From a virus (lineage: Duplodnaviria; Heunggongvirae; Uroviricota; Caudoviricetes), in the IMG/VR virus record IMGVR_UViG_2778261458_000009, positions 1 through 19,974 of that record: 19,974 nucleotides of DNA. One strand, 5' to 3'. Below the pieces are notes generated by a model. It ran no database searches. It was not told where the DNA came from and worked only from the letters and a program-made list of their open reading frames with translations. Positions 2,646 to 19,974 of this stretch are shown here, piece by piece; position 1 is the stretch's first letter, and the number at the start of each line of letters is the position of its first letter. The position numbers were made by a program, and so were the translations under genes.

Positions 2646-2648
2646 AAA

Positions 2649-2984: not shown

Positions 2985-3064
2985 GAATATCGTCTCTCAC
3001 CTCGTAAGTTATGCAGGCGACATATAAAAAGTTAAATAAAATAGTTGAATCAGATTGAGACATG

Positions 3065-3095
3065 GAAAAGGCTCGCCTGTGCGAGCCTTTTATTT
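3065..3095. terminator. GC-rich hairpin terminator (stem GGCTCGC / GCGAGCC, loop CTGT) flanked by A-run and T-run
   Basis: Perfect 7-bp stem at 3070-3087, TTTTATTT on the plus side and AAAAG on the other. About 70-100 nt downstream of the 429-aa cargo gene stop. Confidence 0.45.
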
Positions 3096-3128
3096 AGGTA
3101 GAGTGTTATAATAAAATCAAATTTACAT

Positions 3129-3153
3129 TATCTTCTTCCAAAAAGAAGATAAT
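3129..3153 (-). terminator. AT-rich hairpin (10-bp stem TTATCTTCTT / AAGAAGATAA, loop CCAAA) directly after the cargo operon stop
   Basis: Perfect inverted repeat read directly. On the minus-strand RNA it is followed by U-rich sequence. Confidence 0.3.
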
Positions 3154-3164
3154 CATCATATCCT

Positions 3165-4891: not shown

Positions 4892-4918
4892 ACAATACGC
4901 TACCCAAGTAATTAACAA

Positions 4919-5486
4919 AAATCTGCCAATTTATTGGATATACACGTCCCAAATCCCTTGGCATCGTATTGAATATAACAACAAGCACATTAATCACATA
5001 TGCAATAAAGGCATAAAAAACACAACATATATAGCAAAAAGAAATCAAAAACAATATACGGGATGATGCGGATTTTTTTTATCTATATATAGTGGCTGGG
5101 CATAAGAATTGTTATAAAGTTGGCGTCCCTTGCTCCCATGTAATCATATGAAACACAGGATATAATTCCTGAAGGTAATCACATACTTCCCTAGATACAT
5201 AGATGAGAGACTAAAATAAAACCTACCGCCAAGAACTATGCCTTTTTCAACCAATCGTACTCTCTGCCCTGTCTAAAAGGCGGCCATTCAAAGCAAGTAC
5301 TTTTTTATGTTTATCAAGAAGCTACTAAGACTATTCAGAACTGATATTTGGATAACAAAATACCAACTTGATGGCGGGTTCTTGAAGATTCTCAACGGCA
5401 GACATACAAAGCCCATCGTTGAGAAAATCTTATCCATATTTTTTGAAAAATGCAAGCTTCATGTCGCTATCTTCGGCGAAAATCAC
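4919..5486 (-). promoter_or_regulatory. AT-rich intergenic region; expected location of the Q-dependent late promoter/qut site and of a promoter for the cargo operon
   Basis: 568 bp with no convincing ORF between the Q stop (5487) and the cargo gene start. Promoter elements not confidently placed. Confidence 0.3.
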
Positions 5487-6239
5487 TTATCTCGTCACCT
5501 TTCTCAATTGTGTTTCAGCATATGCTTCTTCCTGCCAGCACTTTGTTACTAGTTTATCAATTACGTCTGCATATCCTTTGTACCACTGATAATCAGTCAG
5601 GTCTGGAACCAGCTTCTGGACATGACGTCGTGCCAGTGTAGTCGGTAAACGGCTAAACCGGTTTCCATTGCAACGCCCACAAGTCTTATAAACAGGCGTG
5701 CCATGAAGCCGGGTTCTTTTTTCATCCAGGACAATACCTTTCCCCTTACACCCTCTGCACGCCGTGCTGACTTCTCCCTTGCCATGACAATGCTGACACA
5801 GTTCCTTCACCCACTCTTCTTTGATAACGGATTCCCCGCTTCTGGAATATTTCACCACTTCGCGCAATACATTATGAAATCCAGTACCAGCACAATGCTC
5901 ACAGCGAGCCTTACTTGCCGCAGACCTGGAATAATCAGCAAAGGCAAAATTCACAAGGTAAGGGATGATCTGTAACCGGGTTTCTTCACTCAATTTGTTC
6001 AATGTCTGGTTATCCAGTGCCATCGCGTAATTGAGCAGGCCTTCAATCGCAAACTGAGGATCCTGAACTCCAACTTTTGCCAGGAATAAGGCAAACCCAA
6101 GCGGTGCTTTCGACTGCACCATCCCCTGCGCAGCCATTACATCCGTAATTGTTAAACCACCCGAGCCTGTCGCCGGTGCGTCATCGCTCAATTTTGGAGA
6201 TTTTGGGGAGTAATATTTCGGTAAGGCTTCAAGGTTCAT
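5487..6239 (-). CDS. Late-gene antitermination protein Q-like (250 aa) with four CxxCxGxG zinc-finger repeats
   Basis: Position immediately upstream of the lysis module. Repeats CEHCAGTG, CQHCHGKG, CRGCKGKG, CGRCNGNR. Size and architecture recalled as similar to Qin-prophage Q homologs. RBS GGAG 8 nt upstream. Confidence 0.6.
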   Translation of the reverse strand: MNLEALPKYYSPKSPKLSDDAPATGSGGLTITDVMAAQGMVQSKAPLGFALFLAKVGVQDPQFAIEGLLNYAMALDNQTLNKLSEETRLQIIPYLVNFAFADYSRSAASKARCEHCAGTGFHNVLREVVKYSRSGESVIKEEWVKELCQHCHGKGEVSTACRGCKGKGIVLDEKRTRLHGTPVYKTCGRCNGNRFSRLPTTLARRHVQKLVPDLTDYQWYKGYADVIDKLVTKCWQEEAYAETQLRKVTR

Positions 6240-6252
6240 GCTCGTTCTCCAC

Positions 6253-6513
6253 TTACGCCAGTACGCCTATTGCCAGCGCACGATCGATAAAACGAAATAT
6301 CAGCTCCAGCTGGGAGCCATACTTCTCTTCAAATGCCACGGTATCCGCATGCAGCTCGTCGTGATGCTTTCTGCACAAAGGCAACACAAAGAGATCATGC
6401 GCTTTTGTCCCCATTCCACCCTGACCATGGCCTATCAGGTGGTGGGGATCATCAGCAGGCTTTCCACAACATGCACACGGCTGTGTCTTAACCCAGCGCG
6501 TGGTACTTTTCAT
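6253..6513 (-). CDS. Cys/His-rich zinc-binding protein (86 aa), probably the C-terminal part of a split DUF968-like prophage gene
   Basis: CACCGK…HH…PLCRKHHDELH motif. Overlaps the upstream ORF by 26 nt in another frame. Weak RBS. Confidence 0.55.
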   Translation of the reverse strand: MKSTTRWVKTQPCACCGKPADDPHHLIGHGQGGMGTKAHDLFVLPLCRKHHDELHADTVAFEEKYGSQLELIFRFIDRALAIGVLA

Positions 6514-7249
6514 TAACCCAGCGGCGACGTTTTGGGCGTAACATAAAAGACTCCGGCGACTCCGGCTCCACTTTCAGCGCCAGCACCTTTTTCGCCTTAT
6601 CCTGGATGATGCTGGTGGCAGGAACCGAAGGCACAAGGTCACTTTCCCGGGTGACAGACGGCACAACAGGCTTCGGTAATCTCAGTGCCTTACGGGCTGC
6701 ACTTTCCGGTAAGGCATCCGCCAGATCATTACGAATCAGCCACCAGCACAGTTCCGGCATTGTCACAACGTGACTGTCATCAAAACCGAGATCCCGACGC
6801 ACGACAGATAACACCCACCGGGCACAGTTATCCGTTGCCATTGATTCCAGCCGTTCCGTGAACTGATCGCGCAGCTGGTTATCGCAGTGCCAGCACAGAC
6901 GGATTGCGCCCGGCGCGTGTCGCATTGTGGTCATGTTCTCGCTGTGCCAGTCGGAATGAGGCCACTGGCAGCCTTTTTCACGAAGTAACCAGCTTTCAAG
7001 ACATTCCACCCCACCAGCACGACGGATCACTGTCTCATTGCGGAACACGGCCCGAACGGCAGGATCATCCGCCAGCGGTTGTGATGCCGCCGGAACGGCA
7101 CCACTGGCAAAAGATGAATAACGTTCCGGCTCAGGCTCCAGCAGGACACGCCCCTGCATAAACAGGGGCATCAGCTCTGAACCTGGTCTGAACAATACGA
7201 TCCCCATACGTGGGGCAATTTCAGGGGTCAGTAGTGCTCTCACGGTCAC
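6488..7249 (-). CDS. Hypothetical protein (253 aa), probably the N-terminal part of the split DUF968-like gene
   Basis: Long ORF tightly following the KilA-N gene (1-nt gap). Ends within an 11-bp direct repeat. Confidence 0.55.
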   Translation of the reverse strand: MTVRALLTPEIAPRMGIVLFRPGSELMPLFMQGRVLLEPEPERYSSFASGAVPAASQPLADDPAVRAVFRNETVIRRAGGVECLESWLLREKGCQWPHSDWHSENMTTMRHAPGAIRLCWHCDNQLRDQFTERLESMATDNCARWVLSVVRRDLGFDDSHVVTMPELCWWLIRNDLADALPESAARKALRLPKPVVPSVTRESDLVPSVPATSIIQDKAKKVLALKVEPESPESFMLRPKRRRWVNEKYHALG

Positions 7250-7250
7250 C

Positions 7251-8060
7251 TCAATGAACGGTATCGAGCAGCTTTAACAGCTCAGGGAATCGGGATTCGA
7301 AGAAATGCGGCTGCGTCTCGCGCGGATTTGCGGGACTGGTGATGTTCTTGCCGAACATGCAGCCTTTCGCTGTCAGCGACCAGAATTTTTTGATGTTGTT
7401 AATCGCGGTACGGCTGTATCGTTCGCGCTGCTCGACGATCCCCAGCTTCACCATCTGGTGATATGCCTGATTAGCCGTCAGGCGGATACCATACTGTTTC
7501 AGCAGTGCACTCAGTGACAGTGTCGGGCGACTTGAGCCATCGTGTGCATCAGCAGGGGCATCAATGGCATAGCGCGGTGCCAGATTCGGTAAGCCAACAG
7601 CCTCCTGGAGTTTCTGACAGGCACCAAGCACTGAAGAGTTAGACAGGTTTAATTCCCGGCGCATAAAGTCCAGCAGAATCACGCCAGCCTGCATCTTGTC
7701 AGCAGCCTGCCCGGATAATTTTTCCAGTGCGCTGGTTACCATATCGAAAGTACGGATCACCTTTAGATGGAATGACGGGCTGATCCACATTGCATAGGCA
7801 TACACCAGTTCTTTGCAGACATACGTTCCCCGTTCATTTCCCCCATGAATCACACTCACCGGGTCAACACCCAAATTCTGGGTGTTGGTCAATTCATGAA
7901 CAAGCTCAACAGTTTGTTGGCTGGAAAGAAACTTTCCTGGCTCCTTGGTTCTGGCATTTGCACCAGATGCTACTGCTGCGCGATGCAGATCGTTCAGGCT
8001 GTAACGCCCATAAGCATCACGACGAACTTCAATACCATCAATGACCATCAGATTATTCAT
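7251..8060 (-). CDS. KilA-N domain protein / antirepressor-like (269 aa)
   Basis: N-terminal segment …GKFLSSQQTVELVHEL…YVCKELVYAYAMWISPSFHLKVIRTFD… resembles the KilA-N signature. RBS AGGAG upstream. Confidence 0.7.
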   Translation of the reverse strand: MNNLMVIDGIEVRRDAYGRYSLNDLHRAAVASGANARTKEPGKFLSSQQTVELVHELTNTQNLGVDPVSVIHGGNERGTYVCKELVYAYAMWISPSFHLKVIRTFDMVTSALEKLSGQAADKMQAGVILLDFMRRELNLSNSSVLGACQKLQEAVGLPNLAPRYAIDAPADAHDGSSRPTLSLSALLKQYGIRLTANQAYHQMVKLGIVEQRERYSRTAINNIKKFWSLTAKGCMFGKNITSPANPRETQPHFFESRFPELLKLLDTVH

Positions 8061-8079
8061 ACTTCGTTTCTCCTCTTAA

Positions 8080-8469
8080 TCAGGCGGCTGCACCCGCCGG
8101 TTTCTCATACTTACTGATAGTGATCTCGACCTTCCCTTCCGGGATAACCGGTCCCCACTCCACCAGCATTCTTTTCACCTGACTGTCGTCTTCCCACACA
8201 CCCGCGTGGGTCAGGGCGTCAAACAGTGCCTTGTTATAGTTGTCCAGATCGCGGATCCGGTTATCCGGAGGAAACAACACGATCTCCACTGAAGCAGGTG
8301 CCGACGTTGGTTTCGGCAGACGACGTAACTGCTCAACTATTGCTGCGCACGCCGCGCTCTGGAATTTGCGCCCCGCCGCGCTTATCAGGCTTTTACCAGC
8401 AAACGCCCCTTTGTTAGGGTGTCGCCAGTACGTATTCACGCTGGGCGGGAAAGGAAGGATCAACTTCAT
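8080..8469 (-). CDS. rusA: Holliday-junction resolvase RusA (129 aa)
   Basis: …LPFPPSVNTYWRH…RIRDLDNYNKALFDALTHAGVWEDDSQV… matches the RusA family pattern as recalled. Confidence 0.85.
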   Translation of the reverse strand: MKLILPFPPSVNTYWRHPNKGAFAGKSLISAAGRKFQSAACAAIVEQLRRLPKPTSAPASVEIVLFPPDNRIRDLDNYNKALFDALTHAGVWEDDSQVKRMLVEWGPVIPEGKVEITISKYEKPAGAAA

Positions 8470-8792
8470 ACTTTCAGGCCCCTCTCATGTAACCAGTAGG
8501 CTGCACGCAGCCTGGCGTTTTCCTCACCGGCAAGCAGTGAGCGGATAATCCCGACCGCCTCGCTGTCGTCGTCCTTCACCGCGGTATGAAGCGTTATCCC
8601 CCGGGCCACGCCACGCTTTATCGTGATGACGCCTTTTTTCTCCAGTGCGCGAAGATGCTCCACCGCTGCATTCACCGAACGGTATCCCAGCATGGTTGCC
8701 ACCTCCTGATTGGTTGGCGGAAAGCCACGCTCTTTCTGATAAGAAATCAGCATATCCAGCACCTGCTGCTGGCATTGAGTTAACGTCGTCAT
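8466..8792 (-). CDS. LexA N-terminal DNA-binding-domain protein (108 aa, no peptidase domain)
   Basis: …LTQCQQQVLDMLISYQKERGFPPTNQEVATMLGYRSVNAAVEHLRALEKKGVITIKRGVARGITL… parallels the LexA N-terminus as recalled. ATGA overlaps with the Dam and RusA genes. Confidence 0.8.
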   Translation of the reverse strand: MTTLTQCQQQVLDMLISYQKERGFPPTNQEVATMLGYRSVNAAVEHLRALEKKGVITIKRGVARGITLHTAVKDDDSEAVGIIRSLLAGEENARLRAAYWLHERGLKV

Positions 8793-9442
8793 GCCGCCAT
8801 CTCCCTGACCAGTTTTTCCGCCTGCTGGCGAACCTGCGCCAGAAAGGCCTCACCACATGCCTCAAGTTCATCGCGCCCGATGTAGCTGATTGCCGGTCCC
8901 TTCCAGGTCTTGTCGAAAACAGCAATAGCACCAGCGAAGAAAGCGCCTGTCGGCACCTGCTTCTCGTCCTTCGGGATAAACCAGGCAGGCAGTTCAAAAC
9001 CAATACGCCCGCGAATAAAAGCAATATGGTCCGCATCTTCCGGCCACCACACTTCGCTGGTGGCAGCTTTGATCAGGAAAACATAGCGCCCGCCCTTATC
9101 ACGCATGGCACTGGCATGTTTCATGATGTAACGCATGCCGGTGATGTATTGCCCCTCATGCTGACTGGCGCGGCTGTATGGGGGATTACCAAAGGCAGCA
9201 CCTTTAAGCTCCGCAAGACGTTCTGACCAGTCATGCGCCAGCGCGTTGTCTTCCGCCGTGTAATACGCGGCACATTTGGCGTTATCACCGTCAGTGAACA
9301 GATCCAGAACAAACGGACCAAACAAGGTGTTAATTCCCCAGAAAATGTTGTCCGGCGTGCGCCACTGATCGCCCACTTCCTTCAGTTCATGGGCTGGTTT
9401 GTTCCGCAGTTCTACCAGCGCCTGGCAATATTTATTACTCAT
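8789..9442 (-). CDS. Phage DNA N6-adenine methyltransferase (Dam family, 217 aa)
   Basis: NPPY motif (AFGNPPYS). Position within the early-right operon. Confidence 0.8.
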   Translation of the reverse strand: MSNKYCQALVELRNKPAHELKEVGDQWRTPDNIFWGINTLFGPFVLDLFTDGDNAKCAAYYTAEDNALAHDWSERLAELKGAAFGNPPYSRASQHEGQYITGMRYIMKHASAMRDKGGRYVFLIKAATSEVWWPEDADHIAFIRGRIGFELPAWFIPKDEKQVPTGAFFAGAIAVFDKTWKGPAISYIGRDELEACGEAFLAQVRQQAEKLVREMAA

Positions 9443-9534
9443 TAAGCCCCCACGTAAAAAGCATCCGCAATGTCTCCGGAAGTACAGCCCGGATGGGCTT
9501 CAATGAATTTCTGAACTTCATTCAAAAGACTCAT
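9442..9534 (-). CDS. Small ORF (30 aa: MSLLNEVQKFIEAHPGCTSGDIADAFYVGA) translationally coupled between the O-like and Dam genes
   Basis: ATG 2 nt after the O-like stop (TGATCATGA). Its TAA overlaps the Dam ATG (TAATG). Hand-translated; below the ORF-track cutoff. Confidence 0.35.
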   Translation of the reverse strand: MSLLNEVQKFIEAHPGCTSGDIADAFYVGA

Positions 9535-9536
9535 GA

Positions 9537-10355
9537 TCACCCCCTGAATCCTGCCGGGATCTGGCTGTAGTCCACGTTGTCGTAACTGGCTTTGAAGTAC
9601 GGGTCCTCGCGTCTGGCTGCAGATACCGCAGGAACTTCCCAGGATTCTTCGAAATGACGATCCGGACCAAAGAACGTGACAGCCTGTTTCACAAATTGTG
9701 TACCGCTATTGCCCATCGCAGATACCCAGCCCGCGTAGCGTTTCACACCTTCCAGCATGGTTTCGGGGTTTACCCCCTCGTTCAAACGGGCTTTCCAGGC
9801 TTTGAAGGCTGCTGATTTTGAATTGCCACCAGCACGTTTGGGATATGCCAGCCATGCCTGCTCAAACTCCGGAGAGTATTCCGGTCGGTTTGAACGAACT
9901 CGCACAGACTCATCAGCAGATGCACCAACAGCTATTGGTTCATTGACTGATTCTTTGACTGGTTCAAAAGAGTGACTGGTTCTGGGTGAATCTCCTGCAC
10001 TACCCCCTGGTGCAACTCCTGCACTACCTGGTGAATTTGCTGCACCAGATAGTGAATTATTTGCACTACCCCCTAGTGAATCTCCTGCACCATCCAGATG
10101 AAGGAGATAGATATTACTTGAGTTACCTTTTTCACCTTTCCGGGTGACTTTTTTTACCAGCCCGGACTCACAAAGGGCCGCAATATGATTCATCACAGAA
10201 CGTTTGCTAATCTCGCACTGGTCAGCAATATGCTGGTAGCTGGGCCAGCACTCACCCTGATCGCTGGCATTATCAGCCAGCTTGATCAGAACCAGTTTTC
10301 GCAATGGATTACCCACTCGAATTTTCATCGCTTTAACCATCAGCTCCATACTCAT
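9537..10355 (-). CDS. Replication initiator, O-like (272 aa): N-terminal wHTH, Gly/Ala/Ser linker, conserved phage C-terminal domain
   Basis: N-terminal HTH-like segment, low-complexity linker encoded by tandem DNA repeats, position after cII/Rha as in lambdoid replication modules. Confidence 0.7.
   Translation of the reverse strand: MSMELMVKAMKIRVGNPLRKLVLIKLADNASDQGECWPSYQHIADQCEISKRSVMNHIAALCESGLVKKVTRKGEKGNSSNIYLLHLDGAGDSLGGSANNSLSGAANSPGSAGVAPGGSAGDSPRTSHSFEPVKESVNEPIAVGASADESVRVRSNRPEYSPEFEQAWLAYPKRAGGNSKSAAFKAWKARLNEGVNPETMLEGVKRYAGWVSAMGNSGTQFVKQAVTFFGPDRHFEESWEVPAVSAARREDPYFKASYDNVDYSQIPAGFRG
9985..10095. repeat. Five tandem ~21-24 bp imperfect direct repeats (approx. GTGAATCTCCTGCACTACCCCCT) inside the O-like gene, followed by an AT-rich stretch; candidate origin iterons
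   Basis: Repeats read directly at 9985-10008, 10009-10029, 10030-10051, 10052-10074 and 10075-10095. Lambda ori iterons likewise lie within gene O. Confidence 0.5.
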
Positions 10356-10576
10356 GCTGCACCTCCGAGATGCTTCATGTTTTTTCCGGAGCGAAAGGCT
10401 ATAAGCGGCATACTGACGCGGTAATTACGGCCCAGCGGTTCACAAATCACCTTCTGACATTCACGGTCAACCAGGCTAACACGTAGAACATGCCCTGCAG
10501 GTGTGGTGTACCACTGACCCGGACGAGGACAACGGAAAGTCTGATTGGTAAACCGTTTGAAAATATTCCGGATCAT
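10352..10576 (-). CDS. Hypothetical protein (74 aa)
   Basis: ATGA overlaps on both sides (with the Rha-domain gene stop and the O-like gene start). Confidence 0.5.
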   Translation of the reverse strand: MIRNIFKRFTNQTFRCPRPGQWYTTPAGHVLRVSLVDRECQKVICEPLGRNYRVSMPLIAFRSGKNMKHLGGAA

Positions 10577-11721
10577 TTGCGCCCCCTTACCTCTGAAGGG
10601 TTCAGCGACAAATTTATGAGGCAGGCCAGCGCCGAAGCATCATTAATATAGTCATACAAGCTAACAGCCAGCGGAGATTCGTCTTTTGCCAACATAGGAT
10701 AAAGCTGCTGCAGCCAGACCTGATGAATTGATGAAATGTAGGAATAGAGAACGCTGGCGTTATGTGCAACGTCGCTCGGTACAGGGGGTTTTGAAAGCTG
10801 TTTCTCCATCTGGTTAAAGGCATTGATATATGCCTCTTTGAACTGGGCAGCACGTTTACCCGTGAAACCCATAGCAAGAAACGCAAAGCCGTCGCGGGTT
10901 ATTTGATAGCAAGGTAGTTTGCGGCCTGATGCGTCGATGTACTCACTGAGCTGAAAATTCAGCTCAGTAAATTCGGCAGAGCATTCAAGAGACGCAATTT
11001 TTTGAATGACATTTTTGTGTTGTTTGCCGAAATAACTAGCAACAGCCAGAGAAGAAGTAACAACTTTGTCTGCAATAATGCAAAGTTCAGGTTGTACTAA
11101 GGCAGGGATCGTAGCCATGATGGCAGCCTCCGTATGCAATGGATAACTTCCACCACCGGAAACGCCAATTTCGCTGGTGGTGAACTGAGCAGGGTTGGCG
11201 TAACCGGCGCATACGGAAACCGGCGCACCTTTCGGTGCCCCCACCCAGCCCACCATAATTTGGGTATAGCTGAGTTGTAGCAACAAAAAAGACGCTAACG
11301 CGCCAATTGTCGCCGTATGCAATTCCAGGACGCCAATCCCGGCACCCGCTTTATAAGGTGCCTGAACAGTGTAACGTCCCGGAATGGCAGAATCAATGTG
11401 CTGGTGGTCCTTCACACTCAACAAAATCACGCCTGAATTTCCACAAAGGACTAAAGCACTCATGCGGGTAGTCTTTGCGAAGATAGATAACGCGCTGTGT
11501 TTCTGGTTCCCAACGAATAACATGAACATAAAGCCCTCTTCCGTCACGAAACCAGCGGTTAAGTTCCTGCACAACTCGCCCCCCACAGTCAGGTAAAGTT
11601 CTCTGTGGTTACTTACAGCCAGGTGATTTGGTAATCTGCATTCATGCCGTAACAACAGGTGTTCAGAGACGCTGACCACCAGCTGTTGCGACAAACGGTT
11701 ATTTGCCGTTAAACTGTTCAT
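10573..11721 (-). CDS. Rha-domain protein: 382-aa ORF with the Rha domain in the C-terminal 182 aa; a strong internal start at 11116-11118 could give a 182-aa Rha protein
   Basis: …FGKQHKNVIQKI…YQITRDGFAFLAMGFTGKRAAQFKEAYINAFNQM… matches the Rha signature. The 5' ATG at 11719-11721 overlaps the cII-like stop (ATGA). The internal ATG is preceded by GGAGG. Confidence 0.65.
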   Translation of the reverse strand: MNSLTANNRLSQQLVVSVSEHLLLRHECRLPNHLAVSNHRELYLTVGGELCRNLTAGFVTEEGFMFMLFVGNQKHSALSIFAKTTRMSALVLCGNSGVILLSVKDHQHIDSAIPGRYTVQAPYKAGAGIGVLELHTATIGALASFLLLQLSYTQIMVGWVGAPKGAPVSVCAGYANPAQFTTSEIGVSGGGSYPLHTEAAIMATIPALVQPELCIIADKVVTSSLAVASYFGKQHKNVIQKIASLECSAEFTELNFQLSEYIDASGRKLPCYQITRDGFAFLAMGFTGKRAAQFKEAYINAFNQMEKQLSKPPVPSDVAHNASVLYSYISSIHQVWLQQLYPMLAKDESPLAVSLYDYINDASALACLINLSLNPSEVRGRK

Positions 11722-12326
11722 GCGTTAGTTTCTCCACAGACACAAAACGCCACGACGCCCGGAGCTGCACACTCGCGGGCGTCACTCTTTTCTGGAGCGC
11801 AAAAGATTTTGTAGACCAGTGCTGCATGCTCCTGGAGCTTCGAAATTGACAGATACAACTCATCATTAATTGCTGTCTGCTCGTGTGGTTCCACCACCCC
11901 GTCTTCAATTGCTGAACGAATCTGTTTTGAATAACTGCCGATCTGTTCAATGACCTCCAGCAGGCGTTGGTTTATATCGGCGTTCTCTACTTCCTCAATT
12001 TCAGGAAGCGATACAAACACCCCACCAGCAGACTGTGCGACTGCATCCGCAATGTGGTGAGTGCCAGCAGCACGCTGTAAAACCATTGCCCATCCCAGCG
12101 GGAAAATCTGATCGCCATCGGCACGAAGGCGGTTAAATAATGCGTTCTCTGTTACATCCAGCCAGTCAGCAGCTTCAGCGTAACCCCCCGGCAATGCCGC
12201 GATAGTTTTTCTGACAGCTTTCACGTACCACTCAGGCTGTTTTTCTACTTTCCAGTGATGCTTACCCACGGTTAGCCTCATCGTTCTGTGGTTTCTGTTA
12301 ATCGATTTATCCATTAGATTTTTCAT
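11718..12326 (-). CDS. cII-like phage regulatory protein (CP76-type; about 202 aa from Met20; start uncertain)
   Basis: Position directly after cro. Family assignment is from memory and tentative. The ORF-track start at 12383 would overlap cro by 77 nt, so a downstream Met (12326, 12314 or 12281) is more likely. Confidence 0.5.
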   Translation of the reverse strand: MKNLMDKSINRNHRTMRLTVGKHHWKVEKQPEWYVKAVRKTIAALPGGYAEAADWLDVTENALFNRLRADGDQIFPLGWAMVLQRAAGTHHIADAVAQSAGGVFVSLPEIEEVENADINQRLLEVIEQIGSYSKQIRSAIEDGVVEPHEQTAINDELYLSISKLQEHAALVYKIFCAPEKSDARECAAPGVVAFCVCGETNA

Positions 12327-12507
12327 AAAGCTCAGGTTTAAATGGCAACCGTCCGCAAGTTCTATATGCAGCTTCTGCTGCACGTCCTTTTGGAATTAAC
12401 TGGCCCGGACGGTTTCGCCACTGATAAACGGCTTCAGTTGTTATGCCGAAAAAAGCAGCAACTTTCTCAATACTGCCGAAGTAGCTTTCGATATCGTCAG
12501 TTGTCAT
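12307..12507 (-). CDS. Cro-like HTH regulator (66 aa)
   Basis: Divergent from cI. RBS GGAGGG 5-6 nt before the ATG. HTH-like …VAAFFGITTEAVYQWRNR…. Confidence 0.75.
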   Translation of the reverse strand: MTTDDIESYFGSIEKVAAFFGITTEAVYQWRNRPGQLIPKGRAAEAAYRTCGRLPFKPELYEKSNG

Positions 12508-12604
12508 ACGCCCTCCAAACTAAGTTTTATTAGATGCTAATTACAAATCTATCTTTGGTCAATAAAAACTAAGATTACTTAGCAATTCAAGAAATGGTGC
12601 TCCT
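12508..12604. promoter_or_regulatory. OR-like operator/promoter region between cro and cI
   Basis: Perfect 14-bp palindrome CTAAGATTACTTAG (12569-12582) and related CTAAGTTTTATTAG (12520-12533). Minus-strand -35 TTGACC (12557-12562) and -10 TAGCAT (12534-12539), spacer 17, with the second operator over the -10/start. Confidence 0.6.
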
Positions 12605-13231
12605 ATGGAAACGGTTGGTCAGCGTATAAAAGCTCTGAGAAGAGTTACCAGAACGTCCCAGAAAGAATTGGGTAAATTTTGTGGAGTAAGCGACGTTGCT
12701 GTGGGGTACTGGGAGAAAGACATCAATACCCCTGGTGGGGAGGCACTTTCGAAATTAGCGAAGTTCTTCAATACGTCAATAGATTACATTCTTTATGGTG
12801 CTGAGTTTGAAGGCAAACTCGTCACAAACATGCGCAGAGTTCCTGTAATATCGTGGGTTCAGGCTGGGCAGTTTACTGAGTGCAGGGCAGCAGAAGTGTT
12901 TAGTGAAGTGGACAAGTGGGTAGATACATCATTAAAGATTGGTGATAACTCATTTGCATTAGAGGTTAAAGGTGACTCCATGACTAACCCTAATGGCCTC
13001 CCAACAATACCAGAAGGCGCAACAGTGATTGTAGATCCAGATGCAGAACCTCGTCATGGAAAAATAGTCATCGCTCGACTTGATGGAACAAACGAAGCTA
13101 CAGTAAAAAAATTAGTCATCGATGGCCCTCAAAAGTTTTTAGTGCCATTAAATCCTCGGTATCCCAACATCCCTATCAATGGTAATTGCCTTATCATTGG
13201 TGTAGTCAAAGGAGTTCAATACGAACTCTAA
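12605..13231 (+). CDS. CI-like repressor, HTH plus S24 LexA-like peptidase domain (208 aa)
   Basis: N-terminal HTH (…QKELGKFCGVSDVAVGYWEKD…), Ala-Gly cleavage-type site (VQAGQF), catalytic Ser in GDSM and Lys in KKLV. Confidence 0.9.
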   Translation: METVGQRIKALRRVTRTSQKELGKFCGVSDVAVGYWEKDINTPGGEALSKLAKFFNTSIDYILYGAEFEGKLVTNMRRVPVISWVQAGQFTECRAAEVFSEVDKWVDTSLKIGDNSFALEVKGDSMTNPNGLPTIPEGATVIVDPDAEPRHGKIVIARLDGTNEATVKKLVIDGPQKFLVPLNPRYPNIPINGNCLIIGVVKGVQYEL

Positions 13232-13284
13232 GACCTCTCTTCTCTAACTAAGGCACCGAACTAAGAAAAGTTTGGTGTTTTCTC

Positions 13285-13313
13285 TTGCCATAATAACTAA
13301 GTTAAGTTAGATT
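13285..13313 (+). promoter_or_regulatory. Putative pL-like promoter with OL-type operator
   Basis: -35 TTGCCA (13285-13290), 17-nt spacer, -10 TAGATT (13308-13313). Operator-like CTAAGTTAAGTTAG (13297-13310) lies in the spacer; further CTAAG copies at 13248-13252 and 13261-13265. Confidence 0.4.
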
Positions 13314-13421
13314 TTATATCAAAGATAACGAACAGGCAGGACGCCCACGAAGTAGCCGCCGGTGGCGTATGAATGACCGGATGATTCGTTAGCAACAAAA
13401 AAAGCGCCCTATAGGACGCTT

Positions 13422-13434
13422 CGCTCTTTAACAA
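13422..13434 (+). promoter_or_regulatory. boxA-like element CGCTCTTTAACAA (candidate nut-site boxA)
   Basis: GCTCTTTAACAA matches the rrn/nut boxA core as I recall it, about 100 nt downstream of the putative pL. No convincing boxB hairpin or N-like protein found. Confidence 0.4.
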
Positions 13435-13465
13435 TCCTGGTATCCCCGTAACAAAAGAGGGTTCT

Positions 13466-13759
13466 ATGGTCATATTCTGTGCTTACGTTCATCCTAATGG
13501 ATTTTTTATCAGCACCAACCAACAAGACGAATTCTGGATTCTACTTAGTAAGCAGGTCGGATGGGGACGATTCTGTCTAATCCGACCAGAATCAGAATTT
13601 ACAGAGAATGGAGGGCTTTTTGAATTACGTGAAATACGTCCGGCAGATGGTCAAGCCCCTGACCAAGTAATCGAATCGTCAGCTGTTTTATGGCGTCGGC
13701 AGGAAGCGTTCGAAGCTGAGAGAGTAATTTCTTCTTATCTTCAGTCGTGGCAGAAGTAG
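13466..13759 (+). CDS. Hypothetical protein (97 aa)
   Basis: RBS AGAGGG 5 nt before the ATG. Its 3' 161 nt overlap the convergent 167-aa ORF, so one of the two may be spurious. Confidence 0.4.
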   Translation: MVIFCAYVHPNGFFISTNQQDEFWILLSKQVGWGRFCLIRPESEFTENGGLFELREIRPADGQAPDQVIESSAVLWRRQEAFEAERVISSYLQSWQK

Positions 13760-14102
13760 AACTATTGATGATACGTTCAAGTTCACAGAGAGTCTCATCA
13801 TGCAATCTTATTGTCATAATCCCAAGAATAGCTTTAAGACCTCCATCATCACGAATGAAATCAATTCCATCTTTAGTAATTCTTAATTCAGGAATATTTA
13901 TATTTATGCCATCCAAGTAATAATCAAGAGCATTCTTAATCAAGCCATGTTCTTCGAGATAAATTAAGTTCGAAATTAGGACATTATCATCTCCAAATGC
14001 GTCACGAACAGACTGCAACGCATCATCAGAAATTTCATAAGGATGAGCATCATACAGTATTTGTAACAACTGCCTTTGTGCACTTCTATCAAATTTGTCC
14101 AT
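13599..14102 (-). CDS. Hypothetical protein (167 aa), AT-rich accessory gene convergent with cI
   Basis: ATG at 14100-14102 with GGTGA about 9 nt upstream. 5' two-thirds markedly AT-rich by eye. No family recognised. Confidence 0.55.
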   Translation of the reverse strand: MDKFDRSAQRQLLQILYDAHPYEISDDALQSVRDAFGDDNVLISNLIYLEEHGLIKNALDYYLDGININIPELRITKDGIDFIRDDGGLKAILGIMTIRLHDETLCELERIINSSTSATTEDKKKLLSQLRTLPADAIKQLTIRLLGQGLDHLPDVFHVIQKALHSL

Positions 14103-14571
14103 CTTAAATAATCACCATGTTATTGGGGTTATCAAGATTAACCGAATCCTTGTTGTTGGGGAATAACCAGGTCCACCTCGCCTGATGTGGCTAAAAGCAG
14201 GCACATAACAGCTAAGTATTTTCAACCAGAGAGAATCCTTAGCGTTGTGGTGAATGCGGCTCAGCGCACGCGGGTTAAGGTTGAGGCTGACAGTCGACCT
14301 TCTGTGGATACCCACCCGTCTGGTGTGCAACCTTCGCCAGGCACCGGGAGGCACCCGGCACCACAACTTTATGCTGTGTGTAGTCCTGGCGGTACCAGTT
14401 TGTACCCTTGCTTCCGGCTGGTACCGTCCTTTTTACAAAACAGAGAAGAGCATCACCGGACGACGGGCTCATAACCCAATCCATCCTGGCGGCTGCCACC
14501 GCAGGTGTTCTTCTCTGTTTTGTGGAGAAACTAATCGGCCTTGCAGGGTCGATATGATGAGGAGCAGCAAA

Positions 14572-14934
14572 ATGGCTAGCGAACGCAGTACTGATGTGCA
14601 GGCATTTATCGGGGAGCTGGACGGCGGCGTATTTGAAACCAAAATCGGCGCAGTTCTCAGTGAAGTCGCTTCCGGTGTGATGAACACGAAAACCAAAGGT
14701 AAGGTCTCACTCAACCTGGAAATCGAACCATTTGATGAGAACCGTGTGAAAATCAAACACAAACTCTCATATGTTCGCCCGACTAACCGCGGGAAAATTT
14801 CCGAAGAAGACACCACCGAAACGCCGATGTATGTCAATCGCGGTGGTCGCCTGACTATTCTGCAGGAAGACCAGGGACAGTTACTGACTCTTGCCGGTGA
14901 ACCTGACGGAAAACTCCGCGCAGCAGGTCGTTAA
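14572..14934 (+). CDS. Hypothetical early-left protein (120 aa), YfdP-like by size and position
   Basis: Strong RBS GAGGAG 7 nt before the ATG at 14572. The ORF-track 226-aa version has an implausible Arg-rich N-terminal extension. Confidence 0.7.
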   Translation: MASERSTDVQAFIGELDGGVFETKIGAVLSEVASGVMNTKTKGKVSLNLEIEPFDENRVKIKHKLSYVRPTNRGKISEEDTTETPMYVNRGGRLTILQEDQGQLLTLAGEPDGKLRAAGR

Positions 14935-14999
14935 TATCGTTTTTAATTAACTGATTATTTATCTCATCACTGAATATCTTTATATAGTGAGGACTTATT

Positions 15000-15824
15000 A
15001 TGTCTCAGAACTTAGACGCAACCGCAATTAATCAAATCCATGCCCTTATTTCTGCTCAGGGTGTTAATGAAATTATCAGTAAGATTGGTGCCGATGCTGT
15101 GGCATTGCCTGAGAATTTCCGCATTCATGATCTGGAAAAATTTAATTTAAATCGCTTCCGTTTCCGTGGTGCGCTTTCCACTGCCAGCATCGATGACTTT
15201 ACCCGTTATTCTAAAGATCTTGCAGATGAAGGCACCCGCTGCTTTATCGATGCTGATAATATGCGTGCCGTCAGTGTGCTTAACCTGGGTACTATTGATG
15301 AACCAGGTCACGCAGATAACACCGCCACTCTCAAACTGAAAAAGACAGCACCGTTCTCTGCTCTGTTGTCTGTTAACGGCGAGCGTAACTCCCAGAAGTC
15401 ACTGGCAGAATGGATTGAAGACTGGGCCGACTACCTTGTGGGCTTTGATGCTAATGGTGACGCCATTCAGGCAACAAAAGCGGCTGCGGCAGTCCGTAAA
15501 ATCACAATTGAAGCGAACCAGACTGCTGATTTTGAAGACAATGACTTCAGCGGCAAACGCTCCCTGATGGAGTCTGTCGAAGCGAAGACCAAAGACATTA
15601 TGCCAGTGGCATTTGAATTTAAATGCGTTCCGTTTGAAGGCCTGAAAGAACGTCCATTTAAATTACGACTCAGCATTATCACTGGTGATCGCCCTGTACT
15701 GGTTCTGCGCATTATTCAGCTGGAAGCAGTGCAGGAAGAAATGGCTAACGAATTTCGTGATCTGCTTGTTGAGAAATTCAAAGACAGCAAAGTAGAAACC
15801 TTTATTGGTACTTTCACCGCCTGA
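15000..15824 (+). CDS. DUF2303-type prophage protein (274 aa), YfdQ-like
   Basis: Size and operon context match the CPS-53 yfdPQRST cluster as recalled. RBS GAGGA upstream. Confidence 0.7.
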
Positions 15825-15951
15825 TTTCATTACTGCAAATGCCCCTGCGGGGGCATTTATGGAAACGTAATTAACTCAATAATCACCGGATGGTGAGGGC
15901 TTCCTTTTACCAGAATTCAGCGCGGTGCAGTGCATATACGTGGAGAACAAA

Positions 15952-16488
15952 ATGTCATTTATTAAAACTTTTTCCGGGAAGCATTTTTATTATGACAAGA
16001 TAAATAAAGACGACATCGTTATTAACGATATCGCGGTTTCCCTTTCAAATATCTGTCGCTTTGCAGGACATCTTTCACACTTCTACAGCGTCGCCCAACA
16101 TGCGGTGCTTTGCAGCCAGCTGGTACCGCAGGAATTTGCTTTTGAAGCGTTAATGCATGATGCAACAGAAGCGTATTGCCAGGACATTCCCGCACCACTG
16201 AAACGCCTTCTTCCTGACTATAAACGGATGGAAGAAAAAATAGACGCCGTAATCCGTGAGAAATACGGGTTACCCCCGGTTATGAGCACACCTGTGAAAT
16301 ATGCCGATCTCATCATGCTGGCGACCGAACGCCGCGATCTCGGGCTTGATGATGGCTCTTTCTGGCCTGTACTGGAAGGTATCCCGGCAACAGAGATGTT
16401 CAAAGTGATTCCACTGGCACCGGGTCATGCCTACGGGATGTTTATGGAACGTTTTAACGAGTTATCGGAGTTACGCAAATGCGCATGA
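15952..16488 (+). CDS. HD-domain phosphohydrolase (178 aa), YfdR-like
   Basis: H…HD motif (…SVAQHAV…LMHDATEAY…). ATG at 15952 preceded by GGAG at 6-nt spacing; the ORF-track GTG at 15925 is less likely. Confidence 0.75.
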   Translation: MSFIKTFSGKHFYYDKINKDDIVINDIAVSLSNICRFAGHLSHFYSVAQHAVLCSQLVPQEFAFEALMHDATEAYCQDIPAPLKRLLPDYKRMEEKIDAVIREKYGLPPVMSTPVKYADLIMLATERRDLGLDDGSFWPVLEGIPATEMFKVIPLAPGHAYGMFMERFNELSELRKCA

Positions 16489-16841
16489 ATGTTTTCGAAA
16501 TGGAAGGGTTTCTTCGCGGGAAATGTGTACCGCGAGATCTGAAAGTGAACGAAACAAATGCTGAGTATCTGGTGCGTAAATTCGATGCGCTTGAAGCTAA
16601 ATGTGCGGCACTGGAAAACAAAATAATACCAGTGTCAGTTGAACTGCCACCATCAAATGAAAGTGTTCTGTTATTTGATGCTAACGGAGAAGGCTGGCTA
16701 ATTGGCTGGCGTTCTCTCTGGTACACCTGGGGACAAAAAGAAACCGGAGAATGGCAGTGGACATTTCAGGTCGGGGACCTTGAAAACGTCAATATCACTC
16801 ACTGGGCAGTAATGCCGAAAGCACCGGAGGCTGGGGCATAA
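16479..16841 (+). CDS. Hypothetical phage protein (120 aa) with DUF551-like C-terminus (…THWAVMPKAPE)
   Basis: 10-nt overlap with the upstream gene; TAATG coupling to the downstream gene. Confidence 0.65.
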   Translation: MRMNVFEMEGFLRGKCVPRDLKVNETNAEYLVRKFDALEAKCAALENKIIPVSVELPPSNESVLLFDANGEGWLIGWRSLWYTWGQKETGEWQWTFQVGDLENVNITHWAVMPKAPEAGA

Positions 16842-17452
16842 TGACCACTTTCACCGATAAGGAACTGATTAAAGAAATCAAAGAACGAATCGGCAGCTTA
16901 GACGTGCGAGACAATGTTGAGCGCCGTGCTTATGAAATTGCTCTGGCATCACTGGAAGCAGAGCCGGTGGCGTGGCTTCATTCAGACAATGGCTTAGGTA
17001 TTCCGGCAATAACCAGGAGCAAAAACATTGCTGACAGTTGGTTATCAAAGGGCTGGTATGTTCAGCCGCTATATATGGCTCAGCCTGTGTCGGTGGTGCC
17101 GGATGCTCTTCCGTCTTTAAATAATGGCATAGTCGGCTTTGATGAAGGCTGGAACGCCTGCCGCGCCGTCATGCTTCATGGTGCCGAACCTGTAAGCCAG
17201 ACTTACAAGTTGAACAAGCTGTCGGGCAACCCTCCGGTAACTCCGGATGGTTGGATAAGCTGTAGTGAGCGAATGCCAGAGGACGGTCAGCACGTAATTA
17301 TTTTATGTGATGGCGCATTCGTTCTTTATGCGCAATATCGAGACGGTGAGTTTTTTGATGTTGTCCGCAGTGGTGAGGAGTTCTTCGAAACGCAGAGCCG
17401 CAATGTAACCCACTGGATACCGCTACCGGAGCCGCCGCAGGAGGTAAATTAA
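16841..17452 (+). CDS. DUF551-like phage protein (203 aa; C-terminus …VTHWIPLPEPP)
   Basis: TAATG coupling on both sides. C-terminal motif recurs in the preceding gene. Confidence 0.65.
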   Translation: MTTFTDKELIKEIKERIGSLDVRDNVERRAYEIALASLEAEPVAWLHSDNGLGIPAITRSKNIADSWLSKGWYVQPLYMAQPVSVVPDALPSLNNGIVGFDEGWNACRAVMLHGAEPVSQTYKLNKLSGNPPVTPDGWISCSERMPEDGQHVIILCDGAFVLYAQYRDGEFFDVVRSGEEFFETQSRNVTHWIPLPEPPQEVN

Positions 17453-17646
17453 TGAACAACTTAATGACAACAAAACAAGTCGCCGAATTCTGTGGCGTTT
17501 CAATATCGACGGTGCTTCGCTGGAATAGCGTAAACCGGAGAACTGGCAAGAAATACAGACCAGACTTTCCAGATCCTGATATTAAATCCTGCCCAAATAA
17601 ATGGGCATCACAAAAGATTTACAGGTTTGCAGGAGTCATTGAGTAA
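17452..17646 (+). CDS. Excisionase / AlpA-family HTH protein (64 aa)
   Basis: …TTKQVAEFCGVSISTVLRW… HTH pattern; last gene of the early-left operon, adjacent to int. Confidence 0.65.
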   Translation: MNNLMTTKQVAEFCGVSISTVLRWNSVNRRTGKKYRPDFPDPDIKSCPNKWASQKIYRFAGVIE

Positions 17647-17781
17647 TATGCCTTAGATCAGATGTAAGCTGACACACCACTATGGCACAGAGTCAAACCT
17701 AATCTAACTACCTGCTCTGTGCCAAAAGAAGATACTACTAACATAATTATAAAATAATCAACGGGAAATAGCTCATCTGTA

Positions 17782-18597
17782 CTACTCCACAAGCGGGATA
17801 AGTTTTTTACCTGTGTCTTCAAAGAATGAAAACGAAGACCAGCGGTAAGTATATAAAAAAGCCACCTTGCCTGCATGTTCTTCGATAGCTTTTTTTAAAT
17901 ATGACTTGCGTTTACTGACTTTTGGAAATTTATCCGAAAAGATAACTATTGCTCTTGATGATAGTCCACCACCATTTCGCATAAAGAGAGTAAACTCACT
18001 CAATCTAAGCATGTTGAAATTTGCACAATTCGCTACATCATTATCAAACTTAGCAACTATACTTTTTATTTTGTCATACAGACTGACCATATCCCTAAAA
18101 ATATTTTCATCTGCCAACTGAATATTTCTTTCATTCAACTCTGTTATATACTTATTATCATCCACTATTCCAATAGGGTATCGAGCATTTAAAACTATAT
18201 CTCGAGACGCAACCTTCAATAACTTCAGCTCGTCAACGGTTAATGGCAAACCTAAATCAACAGCCATACAATCAAGTTTATGCCCATAATTACAAAACTC
18301 ATTTTCAATAGCTTTTTTTCTCGCACCGAGATTCATTAGAAGAATCGCTGACTTTAACAACATTTCAAAAGCATACCCCAACATAAGTCTGCTAGTTTTA
18401 TCAGTTGCCGATGCGATATCGATGTATTCATGAACAACAGGAGATTTCTTACTTGCTGTCCGAAGCAATTTTTTGTTTCGCTCACCTTCACTTCTCAACA
18501 GCTTCGCAGATAAATACAGTTGTTTAGACTCTGTTAACCAAGCCTTTCGATCAAATATACCTTTCCCATTTTTCTGCGTGATTATCTCGCTCTGCAT
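17782..18597 (-). CDS. Hypothetical protein (271 aa), AT-rich accessory gene between xis and int
   Basis: ATG at 18595-18597 preceded by AGGAG at 6-nt spacing. Markedly AT-rich by eye. No family recognised. Confidence 0.7.
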   Translation of the reverse strand: MQSEIITQKNGKGIFDRKAWLTESKQLYLSAKLLRSEGERNKKLLRTASKKSPVVHEYIDIASATDKTSRLMLGYAFEMLLKSAILLMNLGARKKAIENEFCNYGHKLDCMAVDLGLPLTVDELKLLKVASRDIVLNARYPIGIVDDNKYITELNERNIQLADENIFRDMVSLYDKIKSIVAKFDNDVANCANFNMLRLSEFTLFMRNGGGLSSRAIVIFSDKFPKVSKRKSYLKKAIEEHAGKVAFLYTYRWSSFSFFEDTGKKLIPLVE

Positions 18598-18750
18598 CAA
18601 TAACTCCTATGTTATTAGAATCAAACCTGCCACTAATCAATTGCAAATCTCGTCGCTGTTATTTTGACCAGACATTACATTGCTCCATTTGTAAAATACC
18701 ACTTAACTAACTTGAATGAGAAATTGTAAGTATTCCGACAAAACAGACTA

Positions 18751-19974
18751 TCAGTTGGGGTTTAAGCTAGCACAAGTAACGATCGATTCAACCCTATCCC
18801 ACCACGCCTGGTAGGCTTTACGCTGTTCTTCTAGATAATCGCTCTTGTCATAAACCTGCCAAACCCCTGGCAGTTTATGGCCGAGCATTATTTCTGCAAT
18901 ATGAGGAGCAGTAAGATCAGAAAAATTTGTTCGTGCTGTTCGCCTCAAATCATGAAGAGACCAATGAGGGAATTGATACCCCAAACGCCGCCATGCGTAC
19001 TGCATTAAATTGTAAGGCAGCGACTGCAATGATGTTCGACCAACGGGTTCCCTGCTTCCTTCCTTAGTAAAAAGCATATCGGAACCATTGTTCATAGAGA
19101 TAGCGTTCTTTATAAGCTCTTCCACCGGTTCAATAATGGGCCGCTTTAGCGGTTCGCCCGTTATCTCCCCAGTCTTATGTCGTTCAGGTGGTACAATCCA
19201 TACCTTATTAATGAAATCAAAATCGTCCACCCTAGCAGTAATTAGCTCTGAACTACGACAGCCAAAATGCAGCAATAGCTTAATGAAGGCCCGGTATTTA
19301 GGAACCATTCGAGAACCATCGATCGCAGCATAAAGGATTTTAATTTCATCATGTGTCAGAAACCGTTTCTTCTGACCTTTACGGATATCCATATCTTTAC
19401 CCGTGATATCCGACAGCGGGCGAGTTTCAATGAGCTTTCTCTTATACGCCCAGACATGGGCCTGCTTTGCGTTAATTAGCAATCGGTCTGCTATTGCTGG
19501 AGTCTTAGTGCTAAGAGGCTCCAGGACTTCTAACCAATCATGCAATGTAGCTGCATCGTGAGGGATATTCCCGATTTTAGAAAACAGGTGCAGCTCAAAC
19601 GAGCGGAGTATCTGTTCAGAACCTTTTTTATTTTTTACACAATATGCTTCATACCAGGCACGGATCACAGACTCTACCGTCATGGCCTCAGTAGCTTTTC
19701 GTTTTTCAGCTTGCTTGACCAATCGTGGATTACGGTTTGACTCAAGTTCACCACGGAGACGGATAACTTCTTCTCTGGCCTCTTTTAATCCAGTTGCCGG
19801 ATAAGTTCCGATATCAAGACGCTCACCTTTCCCTGCCCATTGATAACGATATTGGAACACTACGCGACCTTTCGGTGATACTCTGACAGACAGACCATCA
19901 CGATCGGATTTAACCAAAACCTTATCACGTTCCTTTCCAACGACTGAACGCAACCACGCATCAGACAGCGCCAT
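18751..19974 (-). CDS. Tyrosine-type site-specific integrase (407 aa)
   Basis: Start codon at the window edge (19972-19974). N-terminal arm-binding-like region and C-terminal catalytic pattern (…HDLRRTARTN…LGHK…Y…) typical of phage integrases. Confidence 0.9.
   Translation of the reverse strand: MALSDAWLRSVVGKERDKVLVKSDRDGLSVRVSPKGRVVFQYRYQWAGKGERLDIGTYPATGLKEAREEVIRLRGELESNRNPRLVKQAEKRKATEAMTVESVIRAWYEAYCVKNKKGSEQILRSFELHLFSKIGNIPHDAATLHDWLEVLEPLSTKTPAIADRLLINAKQAHVWAYKRKLIETRPLSDITGKDMDIRKGQKKRFLTHDEIKILYAAIDGSRMVPKYRAFIKLLLHFGCRSSELITARVDDFDFINKVWIVPPERHKTGEITGEPLKRPIIEPVEELIKNAISMNNGSDMLFTKEGSREPVGRTSLQSLPYNLMQYAWRRLGYQFPHWSLHDLRRTARTNFSDLTAPHIAEIMLGHKLPGVWQVYDKSDYLEEQRKAYQAWWDRVESIVTCASLNPN

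Follow-up and report, generated by a model that had tools for sequence, protein, structure and literature searches.

A composite non-coding leader in an N-less lambdoid prophage comprises an STnc100-type RNA, its terminator, and a conserved three-way-junction RNA

Composition of the Leader Region

The DNA analyzed here, called the window below, is a stretch of 19,974 nt (positions 1 to 19,974 of the virus record IMGVR_UViG_2778261458_000009; Caudoviricetes) and is an Escherichia coli lambdoid prophage of the SfV/SfIV/ST64B type without the N gene. The segment at positions 14103-14571 lies directly upstream of the early-left genes. The first of these genes, yfdP (14572-14934, + strand; 120 aa), was delimited by the RefSeq annotation of near-identical prophages, by Pfam, and by homologs aligned from residue 1. 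It is followed by yfdQ (DUF2303; 15000-15824, +) and then by yfdR, after which xis and int are located in the near-identical prophages. The segment is well supported as a composite non-coding leader that contains an STnc100-type RNA (E1; 14173-14436, +), its Rho-independent terminator (14388-14434, +), and a conserved three-way-junction RNA without an Rfam match (E2; 14430-14528, +).

A previous sequence-only reading had described this segment as a GC-rich, ORF-poor candidate for a structured RNA, and a non-coding, structured + strand leader upstream of the early-left genes is supported. The G+C content of the segment is 0.51-0.57, compared with 0.33-0.44 in the flanks. The + strand of 14103-14571 folds to -181 kcal/mol, whereas dinucleotide shuffles fold to -150 +/- 5.7 kcal/mol (z -5.45; none of the 100 shuffles was as good), so the structure is more stable than in shuffled controls; for the - strand, the corresponding z is -2.39. 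The three inverted repeats noted in that reading were also examined. The 14-bp repeat, formed by ACAAAACAGAGAAG (14435-14448) and CTTCTCTGTTTTGT (14510-14523), is exact in direct reading and extends to 25-nt arms (14435-14459 and 14499-14523) that are 84% complementary. The 9-bp repeat around GGTACC, formed by CGGTACCAG (14390-14398) and CTGGTACCG (14418-14426), is exact as well. The hairpin CCGGG-AGGCA-CCCGG is present, located at 14344-14358, 1 nt lower than had been reported. These repeats fall into two separate modules, with the GGTACC repeat being the intrinsic terminator between them.

Conserved Three-Way-Junction RNA

E2 is a three-way junction of the helices P1, P2, and P3. The closing helix P1 (14430-14454 with 14504-14528, +) consists of 25 consecutive pairs, contains the 14-bp repeat, and pairs the UUUUU of the terminator to GGAGA. 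The apex of P2 (+) is formed by GGG (14465-14467), the loop CUCAUAA (14468-14474), and CCC (14475-14477), and P3 is a variable hairpin at approximately 14486-14499 (+). The minimum free energy of this fold is -46 kcal/mol, with z -6.66 relative to shuffles.

Homologs of E2 were gathered via YfdP in genomes and via the loop motif in viral contigs. The alignment of 20 distinct sequences, originating from more than 12 genera, has a consensus with P1, P2, and a P3 of variable length. In this consensus, 97.4% of the alignment cells are paired, and pairing in P1 amounts to 98.9% across the homologs. Covariation, proposed earlier as a check of the structured RNA, was found: 12 pairs are changed on both sides, compared with 4.7 +/- 1.3 in shuffled alignments (0 of 500 as high) and 0-5 when the partners are slid by 1-3 columns, although the aligned sequences are not independent, given the horizontal spread of the module, and the slid-partner control addresses this dependence only partly. 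The E2 model scores 115.5 bits on the + strand and 27 bits on the - strand; because of this difference and of the invariant U:G pairs, the + strand RNA is considered the functional form. At the nucleotide level, E2 is more conserved than its neighbor, the yfdP coding sequence, with identities of 79-91% and 71-79%, respectively, at the same 12 loci.

An Rfam scan, also suggested by the sequence-only reading, yielded a sub-threshold, full-length match of E1 to STnc100 (RF02076) and no family matching E2, either in the window or in its relatives. The searched literature contained no RNA in the yfdP leader, no ST64B small RNA (sRNA) at this position, and no prophage mimic of initiator tRNA.

The apex of P2 reads GA-CGGGCUCAUAACCCAA-UC and is nearly invariant, while the stems covary. 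Its sequence CGGGCTCATAACCC (14464-14477) coincides in all 14 nt with part of the anticodon arm of metY tRNA-fMet from E. coli, including three G:C pairs and the CUCAUAA loop; an exact-match scan agrees. Mimics of tRNA anticodon arms occur in mRNA leaders, for example, in the thrS operator, and the E2 hairpin likewise reproduces an anticodon arm, with 14 of 14 nt of tRNA-fMet. Additionally, phages encoding Shiga toxin (Stx) carry tRNA genes at the position after tR', the same position that is occupied by the late-operon copies of E2 described below. In contrast to thrS-type mimics and phage tRNAs, E2 has no cloverleaf (ARAGORN found 0 genes in the window, and no Rfam tRNA match was obtained there at E up to 10), its three G:C pairs are not universal, and no partner protein is known.

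The 3' flank of E2 (14524-14571, +) contains a conserved box, GGAGAAACUAA(U/C)C, a hairpin (14534-14541 with 14546-14553), and the Shine-Dalgarno (SD) sequence AGGAG (14560-14564). In homologs, the pairing of this small G+C hairpin (14534-14553) is kept with different sequences; taken alone, it has z -1.34.

Distribution of E2

Hundreds of prophages from at least 12 enterobacterial genera carry E2, among them Shigella serotype-converting phages and Stx phages. The gene that follows is yfdP in most loci and rdgC in others, and in SfII, E2 stands directly before yfdR; because the first genes after it differ, E2 belongs to the operon leader and not to yfdP. Most of the 154 distinct motif contexts represent this early-left form, with a U-run just upstream. 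In mEp460 and the Stx phages, homology with the window exists only from 14387 rightwards, and the terminator and E2 therefore travel as one unit. The K-12 prophage CPS-53 (yfdO-yfdP intergenic region, L043) has kept yfdP and has no E1, terminator, or E2; its homology starts approximately 20 nt before the yfdP ATG.

A short late form of the E2 core is found between Q (PF03589) and the holin gene, where it follows a tR'-like terminator at a distance of 7-8 nt. Its P1 has 6-7 bp, its P2 loop is unchanged, and its P3, with a CUUG tetraloop, is followed by GCC; four pairs are changed on both sides in its consensus fold. The late form was found in L050 (12006-12060, +), L046, L051, L057, L092, L147, and other loci, while in the phage collection it occurs only in four induced E. 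coli prophages. Both forms are carried by L050 and L092, one per operon (early-left and late) and on opposite strands. In L057, isrI lies ~320 nt further downstream of the late-form copy.

Two Providencia loci (L030 and L032) have retained the terminator, the long hairpin, and GUGGAGUAAUAAC approximately 100 nt before yfdP, but the interior of their hairpin is unrelated and has no CUCAUAA loop. This replacement of the interior suggests separable functions for P1 and the core. The exact motif CGGGCTCATAACCCAATC was also found in a third, unrelated-looking context (L194 10448, +), flanked by GATGCG...CGCATC; this copy is possibly another class of element.

STnc100-Type RNA

E1 includes a 5' conserved block (14173-14210, +), a hairpin (14211-14243, +), a closing stem formed by the perfect 9-bp repeat GUUGUGGUG (14244-14252) and CACCACAAC (14359-14367; both +), and the internal hairpin CCGGG-AGGCA-CCCGG (14344-14358, +), which is its most conserved motif. 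In a permissive Rfam scan, positions 14214-14436 matched RF02076 with 41.2 bits (E 1.3e-7; model positions 1-206 of 206, + strand). The alignment rests on the closing stem, the CACCGGGAGGCACCCGG hairpin, and the 3' terminator. Matches to RF02076 in the leaders of ST64B, phiES15, and a Buttiauxella prophage are likewise sub-threshold (35-41 bits).

The closing stem of E1 is kept in all eight divergent homologs. The last hairpin reads CCGGG/CCCGG in four of the eight and GGUGG/CCACC in the other four, with an invariant AGGCA loop, and the interior between the arms of the closing stem exists in at least three variants. By these sequence features, E1 is related to STnc100 as a divergent member of the family, ~220-260 nt in length.

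STnc100, a widely detected relative of PasD, is a multi-copy prophage sRNA with 11 copies in EDL933, one of which was confirmed by Northern blotting (PMC5331693). E1 resembles STnc100 and PasD in its UGGUGAAU...CACCA closing stem, CACCGGGAGGCACCCGG hairpin, and 3' intrinsic terminator, and both E1 and STnc100 are found in lambdoid prophages of Enterobacteriaceae. Unlike STnc100, E1 remains below the family cut-off and has different interior hairpins. The location differs as well: E1 is part of an early-left leader, whereas the described copies lie near late genes (downstream of stx2 for STnc100; near Q for PasD). Of the earlier suggestion of an sRNA by analogy with DicF, the sRNA part was retained, as the first half of the segment is a sub-threshold, full-length relative of STnc100, and the DicF part was rejected: the match to DicF (RF00039) is confined to the terminator hairpin and, at 15.7 bits (cut-off 48; E 1.5), is at chance level.

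A boxA-like GTGCTCTTTC or GCGCTCTCAG precedes many E1 variants (L010, L012, L018, L038, L041, L091, and others), just 5' of GTTGTGGTGAAT. Such an element would suggest antitermination by Nus factors of the rrn type. The boxA-like GUGCUCUUUC of other E1 variants reads AAUCCUUAGC in the window, and a nut site, that is, boxA together with an N gene, is not found there. A boxA reading of E1 is suggestive at the other loci, but it was rejected for the window, where the copy AATCCTTAGC is degenerate. In L154 (7505-7990), two E1-type modules (GTTGTGGT...CACAAC) stand in tandem before one terminator and E2. Neither a promoter scan nor reading of the homologs revealed a convincing conserved -35/-10 pair that would serve as an own sigma-70 promoter of E1 or E2.

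Intrinsic Terminator Between the Modules

The 3' end of E1 is a Rho-independent terminator in which UUUUU (14430-14434) comes after a stem of 13 bp (14388-14400 with 14416-14428). The GGTACC repeat is the core of this stem, and the terminator is also the 3' end of the STnc100 model. Its hairpin folds to -20.5 kcal/mol (z -3.86 vs. shuffles). In homologs, the stem differs in sequence with its pairing kept, as in GGCGGUACC/GGUACCGCC, GGCGGCGUC/GGCGCCGC, AGCGGCACC/GGUGCCGC, and GGCGGCAUC/GAUGCCGC, and it is always followed by 5-8 U. On these grounds, 14388-14434 is predicted to terminate transcription.

An alternative terminator hairpin, the loop and 3' arm of which contain a conserved GAGGA.GA.GATAATGTTCTG box, was observed in L008, L024, L027, L030, L036 (ST64B), and L038. 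This box lies just upstream of E2 and is absent from the window; it could be a -10 element, a tiny open reading frame (ORF), or a further structural motif.

Coding Potential

The overlapping ORFs in the segment had been read as shadow ORFs, and this assessment was confirmed: these ORFs gave no match in a Pfam search, and no frame is conserved in the homologs. Stops interrupt almost all of the six frames across the homologs. Among 19 homologous loci tested, the yfdP frame is closed 3-96 nt before the ATG in 15, and this distance is 3-39 nt in most homologs. For YfdP relatives encoded at 31 loci of other genomes, almost every alignment with the 120-aa protein starting at 14572 begins at its residues 1-5. 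The length differences of P3 among homologs are not multiples of three. An upstream ORF starting from GUG in the 3' arm of P1 was rejected, as it is not conserved; it has 11 codons in the window and, read by eye, would stop after 3 codons where GGAGAACUAAC has lost one A.

Genomic Context

The gene cI (12605-13231, +; S24/HTH repressor, Pfam) is located to the left of the leader. Cro, a P22_Cro protein (Pfam), is encoded at 12307-12507 (-), and a CP76/cII-like gene, the replication genes, and Rz are on the - strand of the window, as are Q (5487-6239, -) and the holin gene (2649-2984, -). Two copies of the repressor operator motif CTAAG-N4-CTTAG lie between cro and cI (12520-12533 and 12569-12582). 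Mismatched copies, CTAAG-N4-(C/G)TTAG, at 13261-13274 and 13297-13310 overlap a candidate PL found by promoter scan (TTGCCA-17-TAGATT; 13285-13313, +), which is outside 14103-14571. We take this site to be PL, the presumed source of rightward early-left transcription.

Between this candidate and the leader, a gene for a 167-aa protein (13599-14102, -) is convergent to the presumed PL transcript and has its own terminator (13401-13422); no Pfam or PADLOC match was found for it. A promoter-like TTGATA-16-GATTAT (14108-14135, -) was noted for this divergent gene, with a consensus-scan score of 9/12, which is weak evidence. Transcription from it would begin approximately at the ATG of the 167-aa gene and would yield a leaderless mRNA. 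The left edge of the segment (14103-14172) is phage-specific, and homology with SfIV, SfV, and SfII begins only at 14119 or 14173.

The close relatives of the prophage are the Shigella phages SfIV, SfV, and SfII, E. coli mEp460, Stx2c phages, and Salmonella ST64B (~77% identical). N, cII, and cIII are absent from the group of SfII, SfIV, and SfV (PMC3851460). In ST64B, no small Arg-rich ORF was found between cI and yfdP.

Two further observations concern other parts of the window. In the PR operon, above-threshold Rfam matches were found for C4 antisense RNA (11173-11260, -; 80.7 bits) and isrK (11285-11361, -; 61.2 bits). This pair lies inside a mechanically called ORF (10573-11721), is also found in ST64B (L036 409-597), and looks like an antirepressor control module of the P1/Gifsy type. 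Between Q and the holin gene, 4451-4918 (-) matches PADLOC PD-T4-10_A (E 3e-10), and 3165-4454 (-) matches PD-T4-10_B (E 2e-7) and also DUF6575. By these matches, the two genes are probably an anti-phage defense moron in the late operon.

Proposed Mechanism

On balance, we lean toward a leader in which an STnc100-type RNA and a terminator gate are followed by E2 as a cis-acting leader element for processing and for binding of a host factor. Transcripts would enter from the left, probably from PL at ~13313 and possibly from a local promoter, and E1 would be made first. Polymerases halting at the E1 terminator would leave a discrete small RNA, and only read-through would express yfdP, yfdQ, yfdR, and the genes up to xis and int. 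Because only read-through would reach the early-left genes, the terminator would act as a gate; that it gates early-left expression and releases a small RNA is proposed with moderate confidence.

Read-through RNA would run straight into E2, the closing helix of which starts in the U-tract of the terminator. P1 (about 25-28 bp, near-perfect) may be a processing site of the RNase III type, at which cleavage would separate the small RNA from the early-left mRNA behind it and define the 5' end of the latter. The invariant P2 loop, GA-CGG(G)CUCAUAACCCAA-UC, which copies the anticodon hairpin of initiator tRNA, may bind a conserved host component. For read-through transcripts, these roles of P1 and of the loop are likewise proposed with moderate confidence.

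RNase III processing hairpins are known from the lambda N leader, lambda sib, and the T7 early region. With its 25 pairs, P1 is a duplex of the kind expected for such sites (~20 bp or more, near-perfect), and a processing site, one of the options named in the sequence-only reading, would be compatible with this 25-bp duplex. Similar to these systems, E2 has a long duplex that follows a promoter-proximal RNA and precedes the first gene. This duplex, like that of sib, includes terminator sequence and so would form fully only in read-through transcripts. E2 differs in its branched interior with an invariant loop, in the P1 of only 6-7 bp of the late form, and in that cleavage at E2 is predicted.

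Several points weigh against this mechanism. E1, at 41.2 bits, remains below the STnc100 gathering cut-off of 47 bits and is not reported by a scan of the whole window at gathering thresholds. The P2 of the window is weakened by a G-to-U change, resulting in CCUGG instead of CCGGG. More than 100 viral contigs have only two G:C pairs in place of the three of the initiator-like stem, and the loop positions 37-38 vary (AA, UC, or UA); these variants weaken the case for a strict tRNA-fMet mimic. The Scandinavium copy (L031) has lost CAU. RNase III explains neither the late form, with its 6-7 bp P1, nor the invariant loop. The promoter, the efficiency of termination, the cleavage by RNase III, and the nature of the ligand are all points that we infer.

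Alternative Explanations

The alternative that survives best, although we regard it as doubtful, is that E2, alone or with E1, works in cis as a processive antiterminator. Like HK022 put or Bacillus EAR, to which it would be functionally analogous, it would protect RNA polymerase from downstream terminators and Rho in phages without an N protein. The literature describes lambdoid phages with a yfdP-yfdQ-yfbR cluster as N-less and does no more than speculate on a put-like mechanism for them (PMC12315714), and E2 heads long operons in this N-less group. The two prophages that carry an early-left copy and a late core copy on opposite strands are reminiscent of paired nut or put sites, and the invariant loop suggests binding to a conserved host machine. 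Moreover, put and E2 are both structured early-left leader RNAs in N-less lambdoid phages and both candidates for cis action on transcription.

Several points speak against this reading. E2 is a three-way junction with a 25-bp closing helix, whereas put has two stem-loops and ~70 nt. A put covariance model, built from HK022 putL and putR only and recovering both of these sequences at 93-100 bits, found nothing in the leader, its best match in the window being 12.1 bits at 18013-18099 (-), outside the leader. The window contains no second, putR-like copy of E2, including in the ~12 kb of its PR operon (the next, unrelated match has E 0.38), and no E2 copy was found in the PR operon of L050, which spans cI to the holin gene. 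E2 also lies ~1.1 kb from the candidate PL and after, not before, the one clear terminator of the leader, and the late copies sit in operons that already have the Q antiterminator. Membership in the put family, one of the suggestions of the sequence-only reading, was therefore rejected, because of the missing match to the two-sequence covariance model and the unpaired copy; a put-like role of E2 found no support in these tests and is considered doubtful.

We consider it improbable that E2 is excised and acts in trans as a stable decoy of the tRNA-fMet anticodon arm against VapC/MvpT, or that it sequesters a reader of this arm (30S P site/IF3 or MetRS). Shigella and Salmonella carry VapC toxins that cut tRNA-fMet, and both are among the hosts of E2. 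The 14-nt identity with tRNA-fMet and the near-invariance of the loop among covarying stems would also fit such a decoy. Against it are the common two-G:C variants, the variable positions 37-38, the CAU-less copy of Scandinavium, and the missing cloverleaf, and both excision and stability of E2 are only presumed.

About as improbable is a translational operator, in which E2 and the small hairpin would mask or expose the ribosome-binding site of yfdP, or the CAU loop would pair with the start codon of the first gene. The leader belongs to the 5' untranslated region and precedes the first ORF by 50-140 nt, P1 is followed by an SD-like GGAG, and several first genes begin with UAUGA(G), which is complementary to the loop. 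However, E2 stands before unrelated first genes at variable distances, and the start region of the window, AAAAUGGCU, does not match the loop, no complement of which was found anywhere in the window. Loop variants are, as read by eye, compensated neither in the SD/start region nor in the terminator loop.

Very little speaks for the repeats acting as DNA, that is, as operators, a recombination site, or the tRNA-gene remnant of an attachment site. Perfect palindromic pieces such as GGTACC, the tRNA-fMet-like 14-mer, and the mosaic junctions at 14173 and 14387 within the segment would agree with it, but the motif of the repressor operators, which are located at 13261-13310, is a different one, the segment is common to phages with different repressors and is far from int, and the invariant U:G pairs and the strand difference in model score point to RNA.

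Weakest of all, and scarcely credible, is a protein-coding region, be it a 226-aa long YfdP (SfIV_34) or the "frameshifted hypothetical protein" called by PGAP at 14248-14558 in a near-identical prophage: an ORF at 14254-14934 is open in the window and ST64B and database annotations exist, but substitutions track base pairing and not codons, and the frame closures, stops, P3 lengths, YfdP alignments, and Pfam results given above contradict it.

Implications

As the segment is non-coding, SfIV_34 (226 aa), SfIV_35, and the PGAP pseudogene over it are most likely mis-annotations, and these database entries, which overlie non-coding RNA, are corrected here. The presence of an STnc100-type RNA, built with its terminator into an early-left leader, links the STnc100 family to the control of early gene expression.

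More tentatively, the E2 core, that is, the P2 loop GA-CGG(G)CUCAUAACCCAA-UC in a three-way junction, may define a novel class of leader RNAs in phages, one that would engage a core machine of the host via an initiator-tRNA-like hairpin, an idea we put forward as a speculative one. If it is true, candidates for this machine would be RNA polymerase, the 30S subunit, and an enzyme or toxin specific for tRNA-fMet; alternatively, the element could be a decoy against defenses that target tRNA-fMet. Since E2 is found at the head of early-left and late operons, it could be the missing RNA device for long operons in N-less phages such as SfV, SfII, SfIV, ST64B, and LLS-like phages. Outside HK022 and HK639, a put-like RNA in N-less phages has only been speculated on (PMC12315714). 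The passage of N-less lambdoid phages through their early operons now has a concrete candidate: a covarying RNA that is rightly placed and has a sibling behind tR'.

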